From positions 1-10,059 of IMG/VR virus record IMGVR_UViG_2713896898_000004: 10,059 nt of DNA. One strand, 5' to 3'. Position numbers and translations under genes: made by a program. A model generated the notes under the pieces. The model did no database searches. It was not told where the DNA came from and saw only the letters and a list, made by a program, of their open reading frames with translations. This document shows positions 1 to 10,059 of this stretch, one piece after another. Origin of the DNA: a virus (lineage: Duplodnaviria; Heunggongvirae; Uroviricota; Caudoviricetes). The number at the start of each line of letters is the position of its first letter. Position 1 is the stretch's first letter.

Positions 1-543
1 CGCGTCAATGTAATCCAGCACAGCGTTAAGTCTGGTTGTTTCTGCCTGTGTCAGTTTACGTCCGGCCTGCAATTTCAGTTGAATCAGACTGATGGAAGCC
101 ATTGCAGTATCAATCAGCGACTGGCGCTGTGCTTCTGCTGCATCTACTGCGGCGCTGCGCTGTGCCCCGGTATCCGTCACCCATTTCTCACCATCCCATT
201 TATCGTATGACGTTAACGGAGCGAGAGTGGTTGTATTTTCAGGATAATCTCCCGGTACTGTAATTTCTTTTGCTTCTCCTGTTTCAGTGTTATAGACCGT
301 TTCACCGCGATGGTCTGGCACATACTCCCATGAGTTTAAATCTGCTGAACGGCAGATAGCATAACCAGCTTTATGTGTGCCAGGTGCATCTAAACAGGAA
401 TACGCCGGAATACCAACACCTACAGCAAGAAATTCGGTTGATGCAGAAATATATTCCCTTGTCTCACTGTTATAGTTGTAAACGATAATGTTTCCTTCCT
501 GTACGGCAATAAGCTCATTGTTTAATATCGCGTTATTCATCAT
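1..543 (-). CDS. Tail fiber assembly protein (Tfa-type chaperone); 5' portion only, the 3' end lies beyond the window start
   Basis: Minus-strand frame starts ATGATGAAT at 543-535; its ATG (543-541) overlaps the TGA stop (542-540) of the upstream cassette (ATGA coupling). Hand translation: MMNNAILNNELIAVQEGNIIVYNYNSETREYISASTEFLAVGVGIPAYSCLDAPGTHKAGYAICRSADLNSWEYVPDHRGETVYNTETGEAKEITVPGDYPENTTTLAPLTSYDKWDGEKWVTDT..., open to position 1. The HRGxTVY and KWDGxxWV pattern is typical of phage Tfa chaperones. Absent from the ORF track because there is no stop inside the window. Confidence 0.75.
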   Translation of the reverse strand, partial: MMNNAILNNELIAVQEGNIIVYNYNSETREYISASTEFLAVGVGIPAYSCLDAPGTHKAGYAICRSADLNSWEYVPDHRGETVYNTETGEAKEITVPGDYPENTTTLAPLTSYDKWDGEKWVTDTGAQRSAAVDAAEAQRQSLIDTAMASISLIQLKLQAGRKLTQAETTRLNAVLDYIDA

Positions 544-1067
544 GCAGCTCTCACAATATAGTTAAATGCAATATTTCGCGGGCGTGTTTCACTACCGCCG
601 GGAATCTTAAAGGCATTAAATACTCCGCCGCCCGACTGACTTATTCCATCTGTATACAGCCCGCCTCCTGCACTGTCGCTGATTGCAAATGTTTTTGATG
701 GTGAACTGTTTGAGGCCGGTCCCCAGTATTTCAATTCGAGCTTTCTAACCTCATCTCTCTGAATACTCAATAAAGCACGTCCGGCATCAATAGCACGCCC
801 ATCATCCCAGCCACGAATAAATTCACCGCGTAAATCAGGCAGTTTTCCTGACGGGTACGCTGTGGCTAGTTTGGGATACTTCAGCTTATCAAAGGCAGCA
901 CCATTGCATTTTAGCCAGCCCTCTGGAGGTGTGGCTGAAGGCCACGGAACTGTTACACCAACAGGCAACGCAGAACCTTCCCCCAAACCAACGTTTTTAA
1001 CTTCGAAAACAGAGCTATCTAATAGCATTTTTACTAACAGAAACAGGATGCTTTTTATGCAAATTGG
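540..1067 (-). CDS. Tail fiber C-terminal variable (receptor-binding) cassette, Mu Sv'-like; probably silent in this orientation
   Basis: Track ORF 540-1028 (162 aa) has tail-fiber/tail-collar-like motifs (WLKCNGAAF...YPKL...LPDLRGEFIRGWD). The frame stays open 13 codons upstream of the first ATG to a stop at 1068-1070, with no convincing RBS. Followed by the Tfa gene with ATGA overlap and head-to-head with the invertase, as in Mu G-segment/gin and P1 C-segment/cin. Confidence 0.6.
   Translation of the reverse strand, partial: PICIKSILFLLVKMLLDSSVFEVKNVGLGEGSALPVGVTVPWPSATPPEGWLKCNGAAFDKLKYPKLATAYPSGKLPDLRGEFIRGWDDGRAIDAGRALLSIQRDEVRKLELKYWGPASNSSPSKTFAISDSAGGGLYTDGISQSGGGVFNAFKIPGGSETRPRNIAFNYIVRAA
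978..1003. other. Candidate gix/hix-like 26-bp invertase crossover site (12 + AA core + 12)
   Basis: TTCCCCCAAACC-AA-CGTTTTTAACTT. Left half matches the gix left half TTCCTGTAAACC at 9/12 (recalled consensus); right half matches hix GGTTTTTGATAA at 7/12; central AA dinucleotide. Lies inside codons 9-17 (EVKNVGLGE) of the tail-fiber cassette, about 55 bp from the invertase start. Confidence 0.35.
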
Positions 1068-1656
1068 CTATATTCGCGTATCAACAAATGACCAGAACAC
1101 GGATTTGCAACGCAATGCGCTCAATAGCGCAGGATGTGAACTGATTTTTGAAGATAAAATCAGCGGAACAAAATCAGCCAGACCGGGATTGAAAAAACTG
1201 CTCAGAACGTTATCAGCGGGGGATACGCTCGTTGTCTGGAAACTGGACAGGCTGGGCAGAAGCATGAAACACCTGATCACACTGATTGAGGAATTGCGGA
1301 AAAAAGGTGTCAATTTTCGTAGTCTGACGGATTCAATTGATACCAGCACCCCAATGGGACGATTTTTCTTCCACGTGATGGGCGCCCTGGCTGAAATGGA
1401 ACGTGAATTAATTGTAGAGCGTACACTGGCCGGACTGGCAGCAGCCCGCGCACAGGGGCGAATTGGTGGGCGTCGCCCGAAACTGACAAAAGAGCAACAT
1501 GAGCAAATAGCGAGGCTGATTAAAAACGGCCACGACAGAAAACAGCTGGCCATAATTTACGACATCGGTATATCGACGATTTATCGTTATCACCCTGTAG
1601 GTGACACGCAACCCGGAGGAATAATTGAGAATACTCAGGAAACAAAAAACCGCTAA
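1057..1656 (+). CDS. Serine DNA invertase, Hin/Gin/Cin/Pin family
   Basis: MQIGYIRVSTNDQNTDLQRNAL...DTLVVWKLDRLGRSMKHL...SLTDSIDTSTPMGRFFFHVMGALAEMERELIVERTLAGLAAARAQGRIGGR... is near-identical in motif content to Gin/Hin (catalytic Ser in YIRVST, C-terminal HTH). Start chosen at ATG 1057 (AGGA 9 nt upstream) rather than the track's 862, which overlaps the tail-fiber cassette. The stop TAA 1654-1656 lies in a terminator stem. Confidence 0.93.
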   Translation: MQIGYIRVSTNDQNTDLQRNALNSAGCELIFEDKISGTKSARPGLKKLLRTLSAGDTLVVWKLDRLGRSMKHLITLIEELRKKGVNFRSLTDSIDTSTPMGRFFFHVMGALAEMERELIVERTLAGLAAARAQGRIGGRRPKLTKEQHEQIARLIKNGHDRKQLAIIYDIGISTIYRYHPVGDTQPGGIIENTQETKNR

Positions 1657-1677
1657 TCTGAACATTAGCGGTTTTTA
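1645..1677. terminator. Bidirectional intrinsic terminator between the convergent invertase and U genes
   Basis: Perfect 13-bp stem AAAAACCGCTAAT / ATTAGCGGTTTTT with a 6-nt loop (CTGAAC); A-run on one side, T-run on the other; sits between stops at 1656 (+) and 1685 (-). Confidence 0.65.
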
Positions 1678-1684
1678 CGTTAAA

Positions 1685-2173
1685 TCAGAACACCCCTTTA
1701 ACTGAGCTGACCACATTGTTAAGGGATGATGTCACCTTATCTTTAAGACCGGACAGCATATCACTGAACGATGAGGATTGCAGGCGCTCCCGCAAATCCT
1801 CATCACAGCGTTCAAGGGTCAGGGAAAACTCTATCTTTTTCGCTTTCCCGTAGCGATCCAGTTCAGAGCGGGTCGTGCTCGTTTCAGTCAGAACATACAT
1901 GCCGTAAATCTGCCCGACGCCATCAATCAGAGGCCACGGGCGTCCCGCATACGCCTGCGTGGTCAGCAGCGACAGCGACACTTCGCCGCCTGTAATCTCA
2001 GGATAAAGCACGCCAGAAAGAACGATGCGATCATCACCTGCACCGATATACTGCCAGCTTGCTGAACGGTTAACGCGCTCGTTTTTCACATGTCGCCAGC
2101 TTTTGTTTTGCTGTAACTGCTGATGCGGCAATGTGCGCAATTCAAAAACAAACATGCCGTAGATCATCATCAT
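1685..2173 (-). CDS. U: P2-like tail protein gpU
   Basis: 162-aa ORF directly downstream of the tape measure gene; AAGGAG RBS overlaps the T stop. MMMIYGMFVFELRTLP...GVLYPEITGG...GRPWPLIDGVGQIYGMYVL resembles P2 gpU. Gene order T-U matches P2. Confidence 0.85.
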   Translation of the reverse strand: MMMIYGMFVFELRTLPHQQLQQNKSWRHVKNERVNRSASWQYIGAGDDRIVLSGVLYPEITGGEVSLSLLTTQAYAGRPWPLIDGVGQIYGMYVLTETSTTRSELDRYGKAKKIEFSLTLERCDEDLRERLQSSSFSDMLSGLKDKVTSSLNNVVSSVKGVF

Positions 2174-2184
2174 GGCACGACTCC

Positions 2185-5022
2185 TTACTCTTTATCATAA
2201 AAGCTTCCACGCCCGGCACGGGTACGCCGCTCCAGTTCTGCCCTGACCATTTCGCCGACCAGTTTCGCCAGTTCGCGGGGATTCTGCGTAACAACGTTAT
2301 GCAGATGGACATGAATTTCACCACCAAATCCGGGGGTCGCAGCCTCCCGGCTGCGGGAAGATGCGGAAACGGGCGCAACTGGCGCACGTGCGGCCTCCAC
2401 GACCGGACGGGAGCTTGCTGCAACAACAGGGGGCAGCGCCGGAGATAACGGAGCCGGGGGCGCGGGAGTGATATTGATTGCAGGAAGAGCCTTGTTGCTC
2501 TGCGCAACCTTTCGCTCCTGCCACTCCCCACGAACAGCAAGCGCACGGGGCAGGTTCTTAAAGACAATATCACCGGGGCCGATACGCTTTTTCGTCTCAT
2601 CAACCAGCCTGCCTGTGTTATCTGCAATTTTGCTGAGCCTGCGCAGCGTGCCAGTGTTGTTGTCCGTGAGCGGCTTGTTGTCTTTAGGCTTATCGCCTCC
2701 GGTCCCTGTTTCCGCAGATTTCGGCGGATTGATTTTTGCCAGGTCCCCCTGAAGTAAAGCAACCTTGTCCTGAAGAATGGCCGCACGCTGCGCGTCTTCG
2801 ATTTTCTTTCTCGCCCTTTCCGCTTCATCTGGAAGGACGCCAAGTTTTTCCAGTATCCATGCCAGCGTATCCAGCAGCATTTTTGCAGGCGTCAGGACAA
2901 GCTGTAACGCACCGCCAAGAACGTTGCCGAACACCTCGCCAGCACTGGTGCATTTATCCAGCGTTTCCTTGCTGGATTCCATCGGTGACAGCAGCGATGT
3001 AAACCAGTTAAAGACCTGAATCACGCCATCACGAACCAGTTCGAAAACAGGGCCAAACCGTTCAAAGGTTTCGCGTAACGGGGCCAGCCGCTCCATAATC
3101 CCGCTGAACACCCCGGCAAAAAATGCCCTGATTGGGTCCCAGTATTTCCAGATGAGAACGGCAGCTCCGGCAAGCGCAGCTACGATAAGACCGACCGGGC
3201 TGAACAACGCCCCGATAGCGCCTCCCAGTAAAGAGACGGAACCCGCCACCATTCCCCACAGCGCTGGCAGGACCCTGACAGCATTCATTGATCCGGTCAG
3301 GAGGGAAAAACCAAGACGCAGTTTTGCCAGCGGGCCAGCAAGCACCCCAAGAGCCAGTGACAACGAGCCAACCGTTGCAGTCATTGCCAGCAGCGCACCG
3401 CCTGCAATCAGTAGCTGGCGCGTCAGTGCCGGATGGGCCTGCGCCAGCTCCGTCACCTTTGAGACCACCCGAGTGAGCCACTGCGTGACAGAGCGCAGCG
3501 GACCGTCAATCAGATCCGCAATGCGGATACGCAGCCCCTCCCATGCACTGCCGAGTGATTTCAGGTCGCCATCAAGGTTATTGGCCATAACCTTTGCCGT
3601 GCGTTCAGCCTCACCGCGTGCGCCTTCAAGTTCTTTTCTCAGTTTGGGCAGAGAACCGTCACCTGCCGCATCAACGAGAGCCATAAATGACGTGAAGGCC
3701 TCTTCTCCGGCTATGTCCTTAAAGAACGATACCCGGTCAACTTCCCCGTATTTGCGGGTGGCTTTATAAAGGTCGGCCAGCACATCCTCCATCGGGCGCA
3801 TTTTGCCGTTCGCATCAGAGACAGCCACACCAAGCTCTTTCAGCGCCTCAGCTGCCGCCTTTGGCGGTGATGCCAGACGAGCAAGGCTGGCACGCATTGC
3901 CGTCCCGGCATCACTCCCTCTGATACCCATATTCGCCAGCACGCCCGCCATCGCTGCGGCCTGCTCCAGCGATATTCCCAGCTTACCCGCCACCGGACCT
4001 GCATATTTCATGGTTTCGCCCAGCGCGCGAAGGTCGGTGTTAGTACGGGTAAACGCCGCAGTAAGTGTGTCGCCGACCCGGTCCATCTGGTCAGCAGAGA
4101 GGCCGAACTGCGTCAGGATATTTGAGCCAATATCCGCCGTCTCGCCAAGGTCCATACCGCCAGCCGTTGCCATGCTCAGCACGCCGGGAAGCGCAGCCTG
4201 AATGGCTTCTGGTGTGAAGCCAGCCATAGCAAGAAATGCCTGCCCACTGGCGGCATCACTCGCAGTAAACTGCGTTTCAGAGCCGAGCTTTAGCGCCTGC
4301 TCACGCAGCGCCTTAAACTGCGGGCTGTTCTGGTCAATTCGCGTCAGCGCCTGCACACGGGACATCTCTTTCCCGAATCCGATAGCGGGCTGCAAAAAAC
4401 GCCCGGCAGCATAGCCGCCAGCCGCTGCCGCACCAGTTGCCAGCGCACCACCCGTTTTCAGTTTTCCCGCTGTTTCCTGCGCGCGTGAATACTGCTCACG
4501 CGCCCGCGTTACACGCGCAAGCGCCTGTCGTTCGCGTTCAAGCTGGTTGTTGTACTGTTCGGTGCGTCTGATGGCCTGCTGGATGGTGTTATCGCTGCCT
4601 GTCAGGGAAATACCGTGGCGTTTAAGCTCTCCGCCAAGCTCCCGCATTTTCTGAATTTCCCGTGTGCGCGATTCATTCAGGCGTTCAAGCCGGGTGCTTA
4701 ACTGCTGCATCAGCTTTTGTTGTTTTTCGCTGAGCACCGTACCCGTGCGTTGTAACTGATGAAGGGCGTTAAGCTGGCGTCGTGCTTTCACGATGCCAGC
4801 ATCCGCTTTACTGACAGCATCGCGGGCGCGCTCAAATGAACGCGCCTGACGCTCGAGATTTTTGATCGCCCCCTGCGTTCGCTGGATGGAGTCACCAAGC
4901 TGTCCCATCAGGCGGCGGGCGTTTTCGGCTGGCCGGGTCAGCCTGTCAACAGCACTGAAGGCGACCCGAATGTCAAGAGTCTTCATCGTCTGCATTCCCA
5001 CTGCGAAGTGCCGCCCGCTCAC
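2185..5022 (-). CDS. T: Tail tape measure protein (gpT-like)
   Basis: 945-aa ORF with a coiled-coil-rich N-terminal region (repeated Q/R/E/L-rich heptads), a central hydrophobic Gly/Ala-rich segment and an Ala/Pro-rich C-terminus; sits between E/E' and U as in P2. The true start may be an internal Met (MQTMKTL...), since E' overlaps the 5' end. Confidence 0.9.
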   Translation of the reverse strand: MSGRHFAVGMQTMKTLDIRVAFSAVDRLTRPAENARRLMGQLGDSIQRTQGAIKNLERQARSFERARDAVSKADAGIVKARRQLNALHQLQRTGTVLSEKQQKLMQQLSTRLERLNESRTREIQKMRELGGELKRHGISLTGSDNTIQQAIRRTEQYNNQLERERQALARVTRAREQYSRAQETAGKLKTGGALATGAAAAGGYAAGRFLQPAIGFGKEMSRVQALTRIDQNSPQFKALREQALKLGSETQFTASDAASGQAFLAMAGFTPEAIQAALPGVLSMATAGGMDLGETADIGSNILTQFGLSADQMDRVGDTLTAAFTRTNTDLRALGETMKYAGPVAGKLGISLEQAAAMAGVLANMGIRGSDAGTAMRASLARLASPPKAAAEALKELGVAVSDANGKMRPMEDVLADLYKATRKYGEVDRVSFFKDIAGEEAFTSFMALVDAAGDGSLPKLRKELEGARGEAERTAKVMANNLDGDLKSLGSAWEGLRIRIADLIDGPLRSVTQWLTRVVSKVTELAQAHPALTRQLLIAGGALLAMTATVGSLSLALGVLAGPLAKLRLGFSLLTGSMNAVRVLPALWGMVAGSVSLLGGAIGALFSPVGLIVAALAGAAVLIWKYWDPIRAFFAGVFSGIMERLAPLRETFERFGPVFELVRDGVIQVFNWFTSLLSPMESSKETLDKCTSAGEVFGNVLGGALQLVLTPAKMLLDTLAWILEKLGVLPDEAERARKKIEDAQRAAILQDKVALLQGDLAKINPPKSAETGTGGDKPKDNKPLTDNNTGTLRRLSKIADNTGRLVDETKKRIGPGDIVFKNLPRALAVRGEWQERKVAQSNKALPAINITPAPPAPLSPALPPVVAASSRPVVEAARAPVAPVSASSRSREAATPGFGGEIHVHLHNVVTQNPRELAKLVGEMVRAELERRTRAGRGSFYDKE

Positions 5023-5191
5023 GCCAGCTAACCACTTCGCCGGGCGTCATCATGAAGATTTCGGCGGGCGACCAGTTAAAAATAACGGCAATATCTGCCA
5101 CAAAGTCTTCTATGTGCTCAAAGCACACAACCGTGATCAGGCTTCCGTCGCCTGTTCGTTCTTCCCGCCAGAGTCCGCACCGCTCAAAAAA
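4973..5191 (-). CDS. E': E' extension, expressed as an E+E' fusion by -1 programmed ribosomal frameshift
   Basis: The -1 frame relative to E is open from the slippery site to a stop at 4973-4975 and overlaps the 5' end of T, exactly as for P2 E+E'. The track's 78-aa ORF 4973-5209 covers this frame. Confidence 0.65.
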   Translation of the reverse strand, partial: FFERCGLWREERTGDGSLITVVCFEHIEDFVADIAVIFNWSPAEIFMMTPGEVVSWRERAALRSGNADDEDS

Positions 5192-5505
5192 TTTACGGCA
5201 ACCACACATAACTGAATAAAGTCACGGGATGCCATTTTTTTGATCGTCACTTCATCCAGTCGCGGTGATGTCACGCGTGACAACAGCGTAAACATGGATT
5301 CCGCTTTCAGATTCAGCACATCAGACAGCGACAGACCACGCAGGGATCCAGCCTGCTCAATAGCCCCGGTAATCTCCACATACGTGATTTTTTCGTCGCC
5401 TCGCTCAATTGGCTGGGTAAGTTTTACGCCGCGCTCGCCGGTTTCTTTCGCAGTATCAGCAACCACCACAGCGTTTTCAGTATTGGTATTTTTCGTCTCT
5501 TTCAT
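5137..5505 (-). CDS. E: Tail assembly chaperone gpE (frame-0 product)
   Basis: 122-aa ORF; AAGGAG 7 nt upstream of ATG 5505; position between FII and T as in P2; contains the T6G slippery site near its 3' end. Confidence 0.8.
   Translation of the reverse strand: MKETKNTNTENAVVVADTAKETGERGVKLTQPIERGDEKITYVEITGAIEQAGSLRGLSLSDVLNLKAESMFTLLSRVTSPRLDEVTIKKMASRDFIQLCVVAVNFLSGADSGGKNEQATEA
5185..5191 (-). other. Slippery heptamer T TTT TTG (T6G) for the E to E+E' -1 frameshift
   Basis: Minus strand reads GTA AAT TTT TTG AGC in the E frame; a -1 slip gives AAA TTT TTT GAG CGG..., continuing into the E' frame. T6G is the slip-site type described for the P2 FETUD operon. Confidence 0.6.
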
Positions 5506-5524
5506 CAGAAAACTCCTTTCAGTC

Positions 5525-5546
5525 AGAGGCGACGCACTGCGCCGCC
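5525..5546 (-). other. Stem-loop between FII and E (possible partial terminator / mRNA processing or stability element)
   Basis: Inverted repeat AGGCGACGCA / TGCGCCGCCT (9 of 10, with a G-U possible in RNA) in the 54-bp FII-E gap; no U-run follows, so not a canonical intrinsic terminator. Confidence 0.3.
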
Positions 5547-5559
5547 TGCATATTACTTA

Positions 5560-6072
5560 TCAGCCGAGCCCGAGCGCGGAGCGGATGCGGTCGGGTACAA
5601 TGTCCTTGCCATCCTTCCGGTAGATGTGGTTCACCAGGTCAATTTCCCACACCGGACGATCGTTAATACTCAGCTTGTAGTAGGTGTTTTTGACAGCGTA
5701 AGTGTGTGACGTGGCTTCGCCCTGTTTGGCCTCCCCCATATCAATTTCCGTCACACGCCCGCGCATCTCGATTTCATACAGGTCGCTTTCTGCATCGGTG
5801 TAGTATTCACCCGCAAAACGCAGCAGCGTGCCGTCCATTGTTCCGCCATATTTAAGGAACAGCGCACGAACGGCGCCACCCATGACAAAACTCGCATCAA
5901 GCGCGGAATCGTCCAGGCCGAGGTCGATACTCACCGCCCCCATCATGCCACCACCACGATAGCTGTCGGTTTTACGCGTCAGTTTAGGCGGGGTGACAGA
6001 CGTCACCTTACCCACTTCATTTTCACCATCCACAAACAGCGTAAAAAAACGAAGATGTTTTGGTACGGCCAT
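5560..6072 (-). CDS. FII: Major tail tube protein (gpFII-like)
   Basis: 170-aa ORF; the start ATG overlaps the FI stop (TAATG); size and position match P2 FII. Confidence 0.9.
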   Translation of the reverse strand: MAVPKHLRFFTLFVDGENEVGKVTSVTPPKLTRKTDSYRGGGMMGAVSIDLGLDDSALDASFVMGGAVRALFLKYGGTMDGTLLRFAGEYYTDAESDLYEIEMRGRVTEIDMGEAKQGEATSHTYAVKNTYYKLSINDRPVWEIDLVNHIYRKDGKDIVPDRIRSALGLG

Positions 6073-7256
6073 TAAGCACCTCCAAGCACTGCAAATGCAG
6101 GACCAAAGAACTCATCAGTGAACGCCTGGTAAAGCTCCATATCTTCCAGCGGAGGAACGGGCGTATATTTATAGCGAATACGCACGCGCCCCTGTCGTAA
6201 TTCTGTGGTGCTGTTATCCACGATGTCATACCAGCACGATGCGCCAATCAGTTTCCCGGCAGTAACCAGCGAATCCAGTTTTGCCCTGATGGCACTGATG
6301 ACGTCCTTCACGTTCGCGGGCGTTAGTGGACTGTCGATGGTTTCAAACTGCGCTTCCGCAATTGAATCAGCCAGCACCTGTGCGGTTCGGGTATACACCT
6401 CAAAGATGTAGGCGTTCGTTTCCGGTGTGCGGTTGCCCCAGAAGCGGAACCCGTTGCGGCGAATGATGGTTGTGATTTCTTTGTTGTTGAGGCTGTTGGC
6501 ATCGCTGTCATCAGCCTGCAACGACCAGAACACATGCCTGGACATCCCCAGCACATTTTTAACCGGAACGTTGGACAGCGATTTGTGCCAGCCCTGTTCA
6601 TGGTCAATGTACGCACGAAGGCCGCACGCATAGGCTGGCGCGGGGAAAACCTCATTCTCGCCACTTTTCGGGTTGTAAGCGATGAAGTCCGGCCACAGGA
6701 GCATCAGCTCGCGTTCGTTGAATTTTTCACGGTATGCAATGGCTTCAGCCATCGTGTTACAGCCATGACAGGAGGCATACACAAACGCGCGCAGTTTACC
6801 TGCAATCACGCACAGGGATTTTGTCACCGCCTCCGTGTCCAGCCCCGGCGCGGCCAGAATACGCGGACGGTATCCGATGCTTTCATCCTGCTCTGCAACA
6901 AGCAGCGCATACATCCCCGTATAGCTGCCGTCGGATTCAGAACCACCGATAACCAGTTGATCCTGTGTTTTTCCGTCTTCTTCTTTGTGTTCAGCCACGC
7001 GAACGACGATCACCTTTGTGCTCACCTGGTCTGCAATGGGTTTCAGCGCACGGTACAGCGTCCCCGTTGTCCCGCATTTTCCCAGCACGTCATTGACGCG
7101 GGTCACTAATGCAGGCTTGTTCAGCGGGAACAGCTTCGCGTCCGCATCGTCCGCCGTTGCCACGATACCGATAACGCTGGAATCAACGTCGTTAATTGCT
7201 GTTACCAGGTCGGTACTTTCCGTAACGCGGGCGCCATGAAAGCGAGTTTCACTCAT
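6072..7256 (-). CDS. FI: Contractile tail sheath protein (gpFI-like)
   Basis: 394-aa ORF, first gene of the minus-strand block; size and order (FI-FII-E-T-U) match the P2 tail operon. Confidence 0.9.
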   Translation of the reverse strand: MSETRFHGARVTESTDLVTAINDVDSSVIGIVATADDADAKLFPLNKPALVTRVNDVLGKCGTTGTLYRALKPIADQVSTKVIVVRVAEHKEEDGKTQDQLVIGGSESDGSYTGMYALLVAEQDESIGYRPRILAAPGLDTEAVTKSLCVIAGKLRAFVYASCHGCNTMAEAIAYREKFNERELMLLWPDFIAYNPKSGENEVFPAPAYACGLRAYIDHEQGWHKSLSNVPVKNVLGMSRHVFWSLQADDSDANSLNNKEITTIIRRNGFRFWGNRTPETNAYIFEVYTRTAQVLADSIAEAQFETIDSPLTPANVKDVISAIRAKLDSLVTAGKLIGASCWYDIVDNSTTELRQGRVRIRYKYTPVPPLEDMELYQAFTDEFFGPAFAVLGGA

Positions 7257-7413
7257 AGTTCCAGCCCCTTGTATCCGTTAAATGATTCGGCAACAATCAT
7301 CACCCACCACGCGCGTAATCTCATCCCTGCGCCGTTCTTGCCGCCCGGCGACAACAAAAAGCAGTAACCCCGCCCGCACACACATGCGACCATGCTGCAC
7401 AGGGAGGGAGCCG
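7257..7413. promoter_or_regulatory. Divergent FI / D intergenic region; candidate late-promoter region with an imperfect TGT-N12-ACA-like dyad at 7338-7355
   Basis: 157-bp gap between the divergently oriented FI and D starts; TGC-CGCCCGGCGACA-ACA resembles the dyad element of P2 late promoters (recalled consensus TGT-N12-ACA); strong SD GGGAGGGAG before the D ATG. Confidence 0.3.
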
Positions 7414-8523
7414 ATGATTGACACCACCATGCAACTGTTCAACCAGAGTACTGACCCCGTGAAGATGCCTGATTTTGATATTCTCGCGGAGGGGAAAACG
7501 CTGTCCGGTGTGACAGAACGCCTGATGAGCCTGTCACTGACCGACAACCGGGGATTTGAAGCAGACCAGCTAACCATCACGCTGGATGATGCTGATGGTC
7601 AGTTGCAGTTGCCGCCACGGGGCGCTCGCCTGACGGTTCTCATTGGCTGGAAAGGCGAACCGCTGACAGAAAAAGGCACTTACATTGTTGATGAAATTGC
7701 TCATGAAGGACCGCCCGACAGACTGACCATTTCAGCCAGAAGCGCAGATTTTCGGGATGAATTTAACGTCAAGCGCGAAGTATCCTGGCATGATGTGACC
7801 GTTGAACGCGTGGTGTCTGCAATTGCTCACCGATACGGCCTGAAACCGCAAATCAGCGAAATGCTGATGGATATTGAAATCGACCACGCTGACCAGACCG
7901 AAGAAAGCGACATGTCCTTCCTTACACGCATGGCGGAAATGCTGGGCGCAATCACCACGGTAAAAAGCGGTAATCTGTTATTCATCATGCCAGGTGGTGG
8001 CGTGAACGCGCAGGGAAAACCATTACCATCGTTTGCCATCACACGCAGCAGCGGCGATCGCCATCAGTTTCGCATTGCTGACCGCGAGGCGTATACGGGG
8101 GTACGCGCTTACTGGCTTGATCTTAATTACGGGAAAAAGAAAAAAGTCAGCGTGAAACGCCGCAAACCGCCAAAACCCAAAAAGGAGAAAAGCAGCAGCC
8201 GTGAAGGTGACTATATGGAAGGTGCGGAAGGCAACGTGTTTGTGTTACGCAAGACTTATCAGAACGAGCAGGCAGCAAGACGCGCAGCGGCGGCAAAGTG
8301 GCAGCAGCTACAACGCGGAGCCGCATCATTCTCCATCACGCTGGCGCGTGGACGCGCAGAACTCTACCCCGAAATGCATGGCACGGTAACAGGATTTAAA
8401 AGCGAGATTGATAATCAGGACTGGATTATTGCAAAAGCCGAGCACTCCATTGATAACAGCGGCTTTACCACGCAGCTTGAGCTTGAGGCAAAAATCCAGG
8501 AATGGATAGCAGAAACAGAGTGA
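7414..8523 (+). CDS. D: P2-like tail protein / late control gene D product (gpD)
   Basis: Start set at ATG 7414 (MIDTTMQLFNQ..., GGGAGGGAG SD) rather than the track's 7282. The 369-aa product is gpD-like in length and sequence character and is followed by ogr as in P2. Confidence 0.85.
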   Translation: MIDTTMQLFNQSTDPVKMPDFDILAEGKTLSGVTERLMSLSLTDNRGFEADQLTITLDDADGQLQLPPRGARLTVLIGWKGEPLTEKGTYIVDEIAHEGPPDRLTISARSADFRDEFNVKREVSWHDVTVERVVSAIAHRYGLKPQISEMLMDIEIDHADQTEESDMSFLTRMAEMLGAITTVKSGNLLFIMPGGGVNAQGKPLPSFAITRSSGDRHQFRIADREAYTGVRAYWLDLNYGKKKKVSVKRRKPPKPKKEKSSSREGDYMEGAEGNVFVLRKTYQNEQAARRAAAAKWQQLQRGAASFSITLARGRAELYPEMHGTVTGFKSEIDNQDWIIAKAEHSIDNSGFTTQLELEAKIQEWIAETE

Positions 8524-8565
8524 GCAACTTAGAATAGCGGCAGCACCACGTTAAGGGAGGTCGCT

Positions 8566-8826
8566 ATGTTCCGTTGTCCGCTTTGTGGCGCATCTGCCCG
8601 AATCCGCACCAGTCGTTCGGAAAATGATTCAGATACCGTACGGAAAAAATATTACCAGTGTAACAACCTGGAATGCGGCGTATGCTTCTCAACACTGGAG
8701 GCTTTCCATAAATTCACATCGAAACACGCCCCCGGCGTTCACTCTTCAGAGGGCATCCCGTGGAATGAGCTACCAGCTTCGCACAGGGGAAACAACCAGA
8801 TGAGTTTGCCATTACCTCAGAATTAA
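8566..8826 (+). CDS. ogr: Ogr/Delta-family zinc-finger late transcription activator
   Basis: MFRCPLCGASARIRTSR...YYQCNNLECGVCF: Cys4 pattern CPLC...CxxxxC typical of P2 Ogr; AAGGGAGG SD 5 nt upstream of the ATG; located directly after D. Confidence 0.85.
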   Translation: MFRCPLCGASARIRTSRSENDSDTVRKKYYQCNNLECGVCFSTLEAFHKFTSKHAPGVHSSEGIPWNELPASHRGNNQMSLPLPQN

Positions 8827-8835
8827 CAGGCTGAA

Positions 8836-8864
8836 TTGCCGGAGTAACAAAAAAGCGATAGATT
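8836..8864 (+). promoter_or_regulatory. Sigma-70-like promoter for the hok-family mRNA (TTGCCG-17 bp-TAGATT)
   Basis: -35 TTGCCG (8836-8841), 17-bp spacer, -10 TAGATT (8859-8864); predicted start near 8871, giving a roughly 400-nt transcript to the terminator at 9277, as expected for hok mRNAs. Confidence 0.45.
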
Positions 8865-8886
8865 ACGCGCGGGTGCCTTTCGGCTG

Positions 8887-9099
8887 ATGGCTGGAGGGAA
8901 TACCCGAAGGCCGGATGTGGAAAGGCCCCGGAAAACATCTCTGTTTAACCGAGGCCCTGACCATCTAACCTTAGCAAGTGATAGGTTAGCGCCTCCCCAA
9001 AAAAGGAGCAAGCGCTATGTCGCAAAAATCGCTTATGGCCATCACGTTCTGCGTGACGGTAATCCTCATCATCTGGATGCTGCACGGTTCGCTGTGTGA
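8887..9099 (+). CDS. mok-like overlapping reading frame (translational coupling frame for hok)
   Basis: 70-aa ORF in a different frame that starts upstream of and overlaps the first 83 nt of the hok-like ORF, the arrangement known for mok/hok. Confidence 0.4.
   Translation: MAGGNTRRPDVERPRKTSLFNRGPDHLTLASDRLAPPQKRSKRYVAKIAYGHHVLRDGNPHHLDAARFAV
8890..8990 (-). ncRNA. Predicted Sok-like antisense RNA (position approximate, promoter not resolved)
   Basis: By analogy with hok/sok loci an antisense RNA complementary to the mok translation-initiation region is expected; the hok leader contains a hairpin CTAACCT...AGGTTAG (8966-8989). No clear minus-strand promoter could be fixed by eye. Confidence 0.2.
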
Positions 9100-9157
9100 A
9101 ATACGGATGAGCTTCTGGGGAGCGGAGTTTGCGGCGTTCTTACAGTGTAAGCAGTAA
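9017..9157 (+). CDS. Hok/Gef-family type I toxin (small membrane peptide)
   Basis: 46-aa ORF, too short for the ORF track: MSQKSLMAITFCVTVILIIWMLHGSLCEIRMSFWGAEFAAFLQCKQ. It has an N-terminal transmembrane helix, the SLCE(I/L)R motif and a C-terminal E-x-AAF-L-x-CK, matching Hok-family peptides (closest in pattern to HokA as recalled). AAAAGGAG SD 8 nt upstream of the ATG. Confidence 0.8.
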   Translation: MSQKSLMAITFCVTVILIIWMLHGSLCEIRMSFWGAEFAAFLQCKQ

Positions 9158-9242
9158 GGAAACCGCGACGGGGGAGCAATCCCCCGTCAATCGGTTGCTA
9201 AGGCTGGCCGAAGTGGCACCCTATCCCATGGACACAAACAAG

Positions 9243-9277
9243 AAAACCCGCAGCGTAAAAACTGCGGGTTTTCTTTT
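9243..9277. terminator. Rho-independent terminator (bidirectional-capable) ending the hok-family transcript
   Basis: Stem CCCGCAG / CTGCGGG (9247-9253 / 9262-9268) with loop CGTAAAAA, followed by TTTTCTTTT and preceded by AGAAAA. Confidence 0.75.
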
Positions 9278-9348
9278 GGAGCTCTCACTTAGCTAAGGTA
9301 CCGTTAACAACACACATAATGCTCGCAAAACAAACCAGTTAAAAGTGA

Positions 9349-9630
9349 TTACTCAGCATTCTCCTGCTTCCATTGCCGGATCATTTCATCCGTAACATCA
9401 CTCTCATAACATACCACGTCATACCCTCCAGTACGGCTATATGCACTGCGTCTACCACATCTACTACCATTCCTTGCATGATTATAAGGACACGCACAAT
9501 TGCCTGGATACGATTCAATGGATTCTTTAATTATTTCTTTCTTGATCTGAGCATCAGACTTTCCTGTTGCTGCATACCCACTAAAAGATACCAAACAAAA
9601 ACAGATTGCCATTAATAAACCACATCGCAT
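9349..9630 (-). CDS. Small secreted cysteine-containing protein of unknown function (AT-rich cargo gene)
   Basis: Track ORF 9349-9744. The internal Met at 9630 starts a classic Sec signal peptide (MRCGLLMAICFCLVSFSGYA|ATGK); the mature part of about 73 aa has 4 Cys (GNCACPY...SRCGRRSAY...VVCYESDV). GC content is visibly far lower than the flanking phage genes. Confidence 0.5.
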   Translation of the reverse strand: MRCGLLMAICFCLVSFSGYAATGKSDAQIKKEIIKESIESYPGNCACPYNHARNGSRCGRRSAYSRTGGYDVVCYESDVTDEMIRQWKQENAE

Positions 9631-9852
9631 ACCGATACACTCTATTACTAACCAATCATAACCCACATCATAAAATCGAGATGTGGAGTACAACACCTTT
9701 AACAAGAAGGTGTCATAACGATAATATGCCGTGCAATTCATCAAAAAAAAGATCTATATCAAAGAGATAGAGCTCTTATCAGTGCTGCAGACATCGGCAT
9801 TCGAGGCAGCAGAAAAACAGTAAATCTGACGAATTTGCCTTTTCTCAGGATG

Positions 9853-10059
9853 TTGTCAGATTAAAAAAGACAGATTAGCGCAGGTACCTTTTGGTGGATG
9901 GCAGGAGGAAAAATGAAGTCGAGTGGAAAAATCCCAGAAAAATTTTTGTTTAACCGAGGTCCTAGTTCACTATGCGAAATACGGAGGAGCTGCAGGAGAA
10001 TTCGGCTTCATCCTTAGAGTTTAAACAGCACGTGCACTACTATTGTTTCTGCATATCGC
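9853..10059 (+). pseudogene. Second, degenerate hok/mok-leader paralog (internally deleted; runs off the window end)
   Basis: Roughly 65-70% identity by eye to 8836-8960 (shared TTGyCr...AAAAAG...GATGGCxGGAGG...TGTTTAACCGAGGyCCT), then jumps to a match with the hok SLCEIR-coding segment (GTTCACTATGCGAAATACGGAGGAGC vs 9093-9118, 22/26). The hok SD, start and transmembrane region are missing and the promoter spacer is only 12 nt. Confidence 0.4.

Follow-up and report, generated by a model that had tools for sequence, protein, structure and literature searches.

Among toxin–antitoxin systems of type I, the reference is hok/sok (parB) of plasmid R1, and the two-state design of its hok mRNA was described by Gerdes and co-workers. 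Most of the chromosomal hok loci of Escherichia coli K-12 are thought to be silent relics. A prophage-borne example is hokW-sokW of the Stx2 prophage Sp5, which has been shown experimentally to be a toxin–antitoxin system of type I and has a toxin, HokW, of 51 residues (Takada et al. 2021, PMC8621323). A more recent preprint (2025–26; 10.1101/2025.08.07.668861) catalogues 44,248 Hok homologs, with hok enriched in prophages and toxicity seen for the tested representatives of many Hok clusters; it leaves Mok and the prophage role of hok open. When we searched the literature, no publication dealing with hok in P88 or other P2-like phages came up.

The locus described here is within a 10,059-nucleotide stretch of viral DNA (IMG/VR record IMGVR_UViG_2713896898_000004, positions 1 to 10,059), which we refer to as the window; its coordinates are used throughout, and features are on the + strand unless noted otherwise. 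In common with R1 hok/sok there is a small Hok/Gef toxin with an LCEIR core, a predicted mRNA with pairing between its 5′ and 3′ ends, a hairpin that the 5′ end can form locally instead, an antisense-target hairpin, a stable hairpin past the stop codon followed by a 3′ element and a terminator, and a putative antisense promoter at the equivalent position, overlapping the region of the toxin ribosome-binding site. There are also several departures from R1. The toxin has 46 residues rather than 52 and a HokA-like C-terminus (EFAAFLQCK), there is no conserved mok frame, the leader scores under the gathering threshold of the Rfam model RF01794, and the carrier of the locus is not a plasmid but a P2-like phage. 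The peptide is, over the LCEIR core, 39% identical to what we take to be the sequence of R1 Hok. We interpret the region as a hok/sok-family type I toxin–antitoxin module that is a lineage-conserved moron of the P88-like (Xuanwuvirus) P2-type phages, located between ogr and the variable att-adjacent region, and we put the probability of this interpretation at about 0.85.

Genomic context and distribution

The DNA of the window comes from an E. coli prophage of the P2 type and makes up its right arm, with tail genes followed by gene D (7282–8523) and then ogr (8566–8826), which codes for the late-gene activator with an Ogr/Delta zinc finger (Pfam Ogr_Delta, 53.4 bits) and is the upstream neighbour of hok. 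Among sequenced phages, those nearest to it are P88, Chuche and P884B11, of the genus Xuanwuvirus (family Peduoviridae), which are 93–94% identical to the window up to position 9277; the homology to P88 and Chuche stops at this position, at the hok terminator. The closest complete genome is that of E. coli strain 510016, in which the matching region adjoins the leuZ tRNA-Leu gene. In P2, ogr is directly followed by a terminator, attP and int, and there is no hok module at that junction. The module is present at the same junction in P88 (NC_026014, gp52), Chuche, Xuanwuvirus P884B11 and 500465-2, and in the first three of these it is immediately after ogr and annotated as "MokW-like host killing" (phrog_251). 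From promoter to terminator, the copies in P88, Chuche, P884B11 and the RefSeq E. coli genomes are 93–100% identical in nucleotide sequence to the window. An earlier sequence-only reading of this DNA had placed the module right after ogr, at the right-arm cargo position of a prophage. This is borne out: the module of this P2-like prophage has ogr on one side and the attachment/integrase region on the other, and in P88 and Chuche the order is ogr, hok module, a variable gene, and int. The gene beyond the hok terminator varies among phages, and the slot adjoining the module is a site of variable cargo; a clearly dead copy is present 600 bp downstream. The possibility that the module is host DNA beside the prophage was rejected because packaged phage genomes carry it.

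We gathered 96 hok-bearing loci from viral contigs, a set in which each species is represented by a single genome, annotated phages, plasmids and E. coli genomes. In 82 of these ogr is upstream on the same strand, and in 78 of the 82 the two are separated by a fixed 193–196 nt, which argues that the P88-like lineage carries the module as a fixed feature and not as sporadic cargo of one prophage. The 465-bp locus is present in 1578 of 5426 complete E. coli genomes (about 29%). A unit extending from the promoter to the 3′ element (window 8850–9221) is also found in other contexts: in Stx phages such as 933W and Sp5, where it is downstream of lom (82% identity), on IncI1 plasmids, and next to ykgM. 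Its occurrence after lom and on plasmids indicates that the module is not dependent on ogr.

The presence of a relative in Sp5 raises the question of its relationship to hokW-sokW, which is likewise a prophage-borne hok-family type I system and has the same PHROG family name (phrog_251). The Sp5 relative of the window locus, with 82% identical DNA, is a separate copy encoding 46 residues and located downstream of lom. We rejected the identification of the window locus as hokW-sokW, as HokW is longer and the 3.4-kb Sp5 stretch that holds the window relative does not contain the published hokW primers.

The toxin gene

The hok gene (9017–9157) codes for a 46-residue peptide (MSQKSLMAITFCVTVILIIWMLHGSLCEIRMSFWGAEFAAFLQCKQ) with one N-terminal hydrophobic helix, no charged residues from position 6 to 22, SLCEIR at 25–30, and EFAAFLQCK at the C-terminus; a Shine-Dalgarno sequence (AAGGAG, 9003–9008) is 8 nt before the ATG. 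The sequence-only reading had placed this product in the Hok/Gef family, and this is confirmed by the match to Pfam HOK_GEF (PF01848; 30.3 bits against a gathering score of 22, E = 3.1e-7), which aligns residues 7–44 with positions 5–42 of the 42-position profile, as well as by a match to phrog_251, ‘MokW-like host killing’ (E = 3e-23). The residues C27, E28 and C44 are invariant among 26 relatives of the peptide, and the reading frame is intact in all 52 of the distinct full-length copies examined.

The position of the protein within the family is less simple. The nearest NCBIfam model is that of HokA, the product of a chromosomal gene of E. coli K-12, and presumably HokA has in common with the window toxin a C-terminus of the form EFAAFL-CK. 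However, the scores do not reach the NCBIfam cut-offs either for the HokA equivalog (NF007290; 35.1 versus 89) or for the Hok subfamily (NF007279; 23.7 versus 73), and as these are far below the thresholds the protein is a Hok-family member but not a HokA ortholog. On these comparisons it represents a distinct 46-residue Hok subfamily.

The same reading had taken the ORF to be unannotated, which is not the case in public records, where an identical 46-residue protein is listed as "Hok/Gef family protein" (RefSeq WP_000078911.1) and phage records also annotate it. With an identical RefSeq protein, a widespread locus and a published survey of Hok homologs, the recognition of this gene as hok is correct but already known.

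Predicted structure of the hok mRNA

A 407-nt RNA extending from 8871 to 9277 has a predicted fold of −186 kcal/mol, compared with −135 ± 6.6 kcal/mol for shuffled sequences (z = −7.8; none of 100 shuffles is as good). In the minimum-free-energy structure the 5′ end at 8871–8885 pairs with 9206–9213 (8 bp, two of them G-U) and with 9215–9221 (7 bp), with U9214 bulged; the 15 bp together amount to −27 kcal/mol. These segments contain a tac-like 5′ element (GGGTGCCTTTCGGC at 8871–8884; feature 8871–8885) and an fbi-like 3′ fold-back element (GCCGAAGTGGCACCC at 9207–9221; feature 9206–9221). The 5′ 15-mer was scored against all 20-nt sites in the 10-kb window, on the + and − strands alike. Apart from its own reverse complement, it pairs best with 9203–9222 (−27.8 kcal/mol), and on the + strand the runner-up is an internal site at 8911 (−21.8 kcal/mol). 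The long-range pairing suggested by the sequence-only reading is therefore found in the fold of 8871–9277, and it is with the best non-trivial partner in the window.

The internal site (8911–8930) is a candidate for the alternative partner of the 5′ element. With the 3′ element removed, a local 5′ hairpin (8871–8929) would form through it, and in an RNA trimmed to the GNRA hairpin (8871–9192) the 5′ end is predicted to refold onto the same site; the RNAalifold consensus (see below) includes the corresponding helix (columns 8–14 with 47–53). The 3′-shortened mRNA is also predicted to form an antisense-target hairpin (8951–8995) with a 14-nt apical loop (8966–8979), which corresponds to the third hairpin of RF01794. 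The predicted refolding is what the two-state design of R1 hok mRNA would call for. Three further elements are in or near the coding region. One is a hairpin that would sequester the hok Shine-Dalgarno sequence (8987–9017), in which CUCC at 8993–8996 pairs with GGAG at 9005–9008 (helices 8 and 9, 95–99% paired). A second is a downstream box (9128–9137) that pairs with the hok start region (9017–9026) in the full-length minimum-free-energy fold and in the consensus (columns 155–164 with 269–278; 99% paired). The third is a hairpin of 9 bp with a GCAA (GNRA) loop at 9167–9188, just past the stop codon, which is the likely stop point of 3′ exonucleolytic trimming in this model. For the transcript as a whole the prediction is a closed structure that is conserved among homologs, with the 5′ end locked to a 3′ element and with both the ribosome-binding site and the start codon paired. 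In the predicted truncated fold the hok ribosome-binding site does not open (its unpaired probability is 0.13, versus 0.33 in the full-length fold), and the activation step is therefore not accounted for.

A search with the Rfam hok-leader model RF01794 (filed as ‘sok’) gives a match to 8871–9005 that spans the entire model, positions 1–157 (E = 1.9e-7, 40.9 bits), although this was seen only in a permissive search, and nothing in the window scores above the Rfam gathering thresholds (59 for RF01794). The score marks a relative that is diverged, yet significant. Of the full hok mRNA architecture claimed earlier, the end pairing, the GNRA hairpin at 9167–9188 and the terminator are all present, but the mok frame is not supported. 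Together, the Pfam and phrog_251 matches, the fold and the end pairing support the assignment as a Hok/Gef-family type I toxin locus with hok-type mRNA architecture.

The proposed mok-like frame is a 70-codon frame (8887–9099) that overlaps the hok start, and its ATG, at +17 of the mRNA, has no Shine-Dalgarno sequence. It exists in the window, but relatives neither conserve it nor give any sign of coding constraint on it. Just 12–13 of the 52 distinct copies have it open into hok. In most relatives it is closed 37–46 nt before the hok start; in P88/Chuche-type copies this is by a stop codon, with no ATG or GTG frame overlapping that start. Homologs differ by insertions or deletions of 1–2 nt inside the frame, which indicates that it is not under coding constraint, and its translation has no Pfam, NCBIfam or PHROG match. 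The frame is probably not a gene, and hok, unlike in R1, is probably translated with no coupling to a conserved mok frame.

Comparative analysis of the RNA structure

An alignment of 21 diverse copies of the locus yields an RNAalifold consensus of 97 pairs, in which 96.9% of cells are paired, compared with about 40% when the partners are slid. Changes on both sides of a pair are seen at 21 pairs versus 7.1 ± 2.0 for shuffles (none of the 500 attains 21), with the consensus structure tested coming from the same 21-homolog alignment. One example is the GNRA hairpin, where four of the nine pairs have changed on both sides, and the two apical pairs have done so in 9 and 7 sequences respectively.

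The 5′–3′ helix behaves differently. It is paired in 92% of cells, compared with 56% or less when slid, but in fixed alignment columns its covariation is no better than that of shuffles (250 of 500), because the 5′ arm is nearly invariant (column identity 97.5% across the 21 homologs). As insertions and deletions shift the register, the duplex was recomputed separately for each sequence, and each of the 15 distinct variants where it is computable still forms it (−21.6 to −30.1 kcal/mol). Two distant homologs, in Salmonella diarizonae (CGAU/AUCG) and Citrobacter braakii (CGACC/GGUCG), have re-registered compensatory changes relative to the CGGC/GCCG of the window, and the 3′ element of P88/Chuche-type copies is slightly different (GGTCGATAAGGCACCC) but still pairs. 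The case for the 5′–3′ helix comes from this retention of pairing together with the two distant homologs. We note that some relatives (L087/L088) have a mismatched 5′ element.

Putative promoters and antisense RNA

The putative hok promoter (8836–8864) has a −35 hexamer TTGCCG at 8836–8841, a 17-nt spacer, and a −10 hexamer TAGATT at 8859–8864, with a predicted +1 at G8871. It is present as described in the sequence-only reading, and is the sole such pair on the + strand within 8780–8900. It was not recovered in a consensus scan, since the scan requires 9 of 12 matching positions and this promoter has 8. The hexamers found in other lineages differ from these (TTGAAA/TAGAAT and TTGCCC/TAAATT) but occupy exactly the same places, which argues for a real promoter with initiation at G8871. 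The Rfam hok-leader model also begins at 8871.

On the − strand, a putative sok promoter (9011–8983) has a −35 hexamer TTGCTC (9011 to 9006), a 17-nt spacer and a −10 hexamer TAACCT (8988 to 8983), with 6 of 12 positions matching the consensus. The −10 box (AGGTTA on the + strand) is invariant in all 21 homologs, and the −35 in the Sp5-type copy is TTGACT. Both promoters are weak consensus matches (8 of 12 for hok and 6 of 12 for the antisense), and this was counted against a toxin–antitoxin module. From the positions of the promoter boxes we infer a Sok-like antisense RNA of ~60 nt at 8977–8917 (− strand), which would have a 14-nt single-stranded 5′ tail (8977–8964), a stem-loop (8958–8922) and a 3′ end of UUUCC (predicted fold −24.8 kcal/mol, z = −3.1). 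The tail is complementary to the loop (8966–8979) exposed in the predicted truncated mRNA. The least conserved stretch of the leader is 8957–8972 (identity 0.72–0.79 in the 21 homologs), and this variability is as expected for a specificity determinant.

These comparisons bear on whether the locus is simply a relic, with an intact toxin ORF but decayed regulation (no mok and weak promoters), that is never expressed. The lack of conservation of the mok frame, the weakness of the promoters, the dead copy 600 bp downstream and the mismatched 5′ element in L087/L088 all fit such a view. It would be difficult to reconcile, however, with an ORF that is intact in every distinct full-length copy, with RNA helices that stay paired through compensatory changes, with promoter hexamers that hold their positions across lineages in spite of sequence turnover, or with retention of the locus in more than a quarter of complete E. 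coli genomes, and we regard silence of this kind as very improbable.

Terminator and possible read-through from ogr

A bidirectional intrinsic terminator at 9240–9279 follows the GNRA hairpin and the 3′ element, as had been claimed, and has its stem within 9240–9275 followed by TTTTCTTTT; it is common to a convergent minus-strand ORF. A scan of the + strand found no terminator between the ogr stop codon (8826) and 9240, and the hok terminator is therefore the first one past ogr and the late tail operon. We considered that it might be the P2 ogr terminator displaced by insertion of the module, but this was rejected as the two sequences have no resemblance.

The arrangement suggests another possible role for the module, in which transcripts begun at the ogr promoter or in the late tail operon would continue through hok to 9240–9279 and, during lytic growth, outnumber the antisense RNA. 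Hok would then help to permeabilise the membrane and speed phage release, with post-segregational killing not being the main role. This concerns the function of the module and not its identity. The stop codon of ogr is only 9 nt from the hok −35 hexamer, there is no + strand terminator before 9240, and the ogr–hok spacing is fixed across the lineage, whereas in P2 the terminator right after ogr ends the transcript of ogr as well as the F operon. In Sp5, moreover, hokW-sokW raised lysis and phage yield after mitomycin C (PMC8621323). Against this, a 5′-extended transcript would keep the 3′ lock and the sequestered ribosome-binding site, and the module is also present after lom in Stx phages and on plasmids. 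The missing terminator after ogr would favour a link to lytic growth, but as an account of the main role of the module we consider assistance in lysis fairly unlikely. A more elaborate version, which we think unlikely and offer only as a speculation, is that the widespread 46-residue Hok subfamily represents a mok-less form of hok/sok, in which the antisense RNA and the end pairing directly control the hok ribosome-binding site and start codon (the latter paired with the EFAAF codons at 9128–9137), and that the module of the P88-like phages may be tied to late transcription through the missing terminator after ogr, and act in the timing of lysis and not in addiction.

Possible mechanism and roles

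For the toxin–antitoxin module that we favour, a sequence of events can be proposed by analogy with hok/sok of plasmid R1. The weak promoter would give rise to a stable full-length mRNA that is translationally inert, and slow 3′ trimming to the GNRA hairpin would remove the 3′ element. The 5′ end may then refold on the internal site near 8911, with the antisense-target hairpin presenting its loop (8966–8979). A short and unstable antisense RNA (from about 8977 to 8917) would bind the loop through its 14-nt tail and lead to degradation of the mRNA. Once the antisense RNA is no longer synthesised, Hok would be made and the inner membrane damaged. Prophage addiction, exclusion of superinfecting phages and help in lysis are all possible roles, and they are not mutually exclusive. 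The sequence-only reading had suggested that the module could stabilise the prophage or contribute to abortive infection or persistence.

The first two of these could be served by the same chain of events, with either a shut-off of host transcription by a superinfecting phage or loss of the prophage leading to decay of the antisense RNA and killing of the cell by Hok. Hok/sok of R1 acts in post-segregational killing and reportedly excludes phage T4 (Gerdes 1986; Pecota and Wood 1996), and we counted this in favour of such a role. P2-like phages are also known to carry defence morons, and the slot beside the module is one of variable cargo. However, no PADLOC model matches the 46-residue protein, and the Hok survey (10.1101/2025.08.07.668861) reports no enrichment of hok near defence systems. 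A function in abortive infection or prophage addiction seems to us unlikely.

As a discovery the locus carries little weight, since RefSeq and phage records already give the peptide a name and Hok homologs have been surveyed. Its value is as a clean and very common example with which to ask what hok loci do in prophages, and as a model for how a hok mRNA gets activated without a conserved mok frame.

The region between hok and leuZ

A second hok locus (plus strand, positions 9853–10024) lies ~600 bp downstream of the intact hok module and is dead. It carries a promoter-like TTGTCA...GACAGATTA, and its leader is 76% identical to positions 8849–8958. A deletion of ~135 nt follows the leader. It takes out the promoter for the antisense RNA, the ribosome-binding site with the start codon, and the membrane helix, and the sequence rejoins at the ...CEIR... 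codons. The dead copy is within a stretch of ~320 bp adjoining the tRNA-Leu gene leuZ, and this stretch is found even in strain MS 124-1, as part of an island that is unrelated. Two homologous prophages at leuZ show insertion-sequence damage. In strain 510016 (L001) the tail sheath gene is interrupted by IS100, and in EDL933 (L097) an IS30 has taken the place of the last part of gene D together with ogr and the hok module; the ORF downstream is still there, as is the dead copy of hok.

The bidirectional terminator at 9240–9275 serves both hok and a convergent minus-strand ORF (9349–9744; 9349–9630 in the RefSeq version). The product (93 aa) is Cys-rich with a signal-peptide-like N-terminus; it is labelled 'hypothetical' in RefSeq, is a member of phrog_27544 (unknown function), and has no match in Pfam or PADLOC. 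Variable cargo occupies the slot just past the hok terminator, after position 9277 (loci L002, L003, and L030), including a 243-nt ORF in P88 and a Com/Mom-like methyltransferase pair in phage Chuche. In four loci (L023, L030, L060, and L068) the 3′ element is separated from the terminator by an insert of ~390 bp, coding for a zinc-ribbon membrane protein that is TM2-like by eye only.

Variation among hok loci

Near-identical E. coli-type hok loci are present in genome_contigs records titled Planococcaceae, Vagococcus and Xanthomonas pisi (L004, L005, and L008), which are assemblies from unrelated taxa. All three are on contigs that are short or of unclear origin, and they look like contamination rather than transfer. 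We also note two viral contigs (L087 and L088) in which the 5′ end of the predicted hok mRNA reads GGACACC, yet the 3′ element is still GGCACCC. Three pairs of the end-lock, the pairing of the 5′ and 3′ elements, are thus broken, and these copies are either recombinant or inactive.

A further pairing joins the hok start codon region (9017–9026) to the EFAAF codons (9128–9137), and this helix is almost invariant among the 21 aligned homologs. Nucleotide conservation at the EFAAF codons is 96–98%, and pairing with the start region may be the reason that it is so high.
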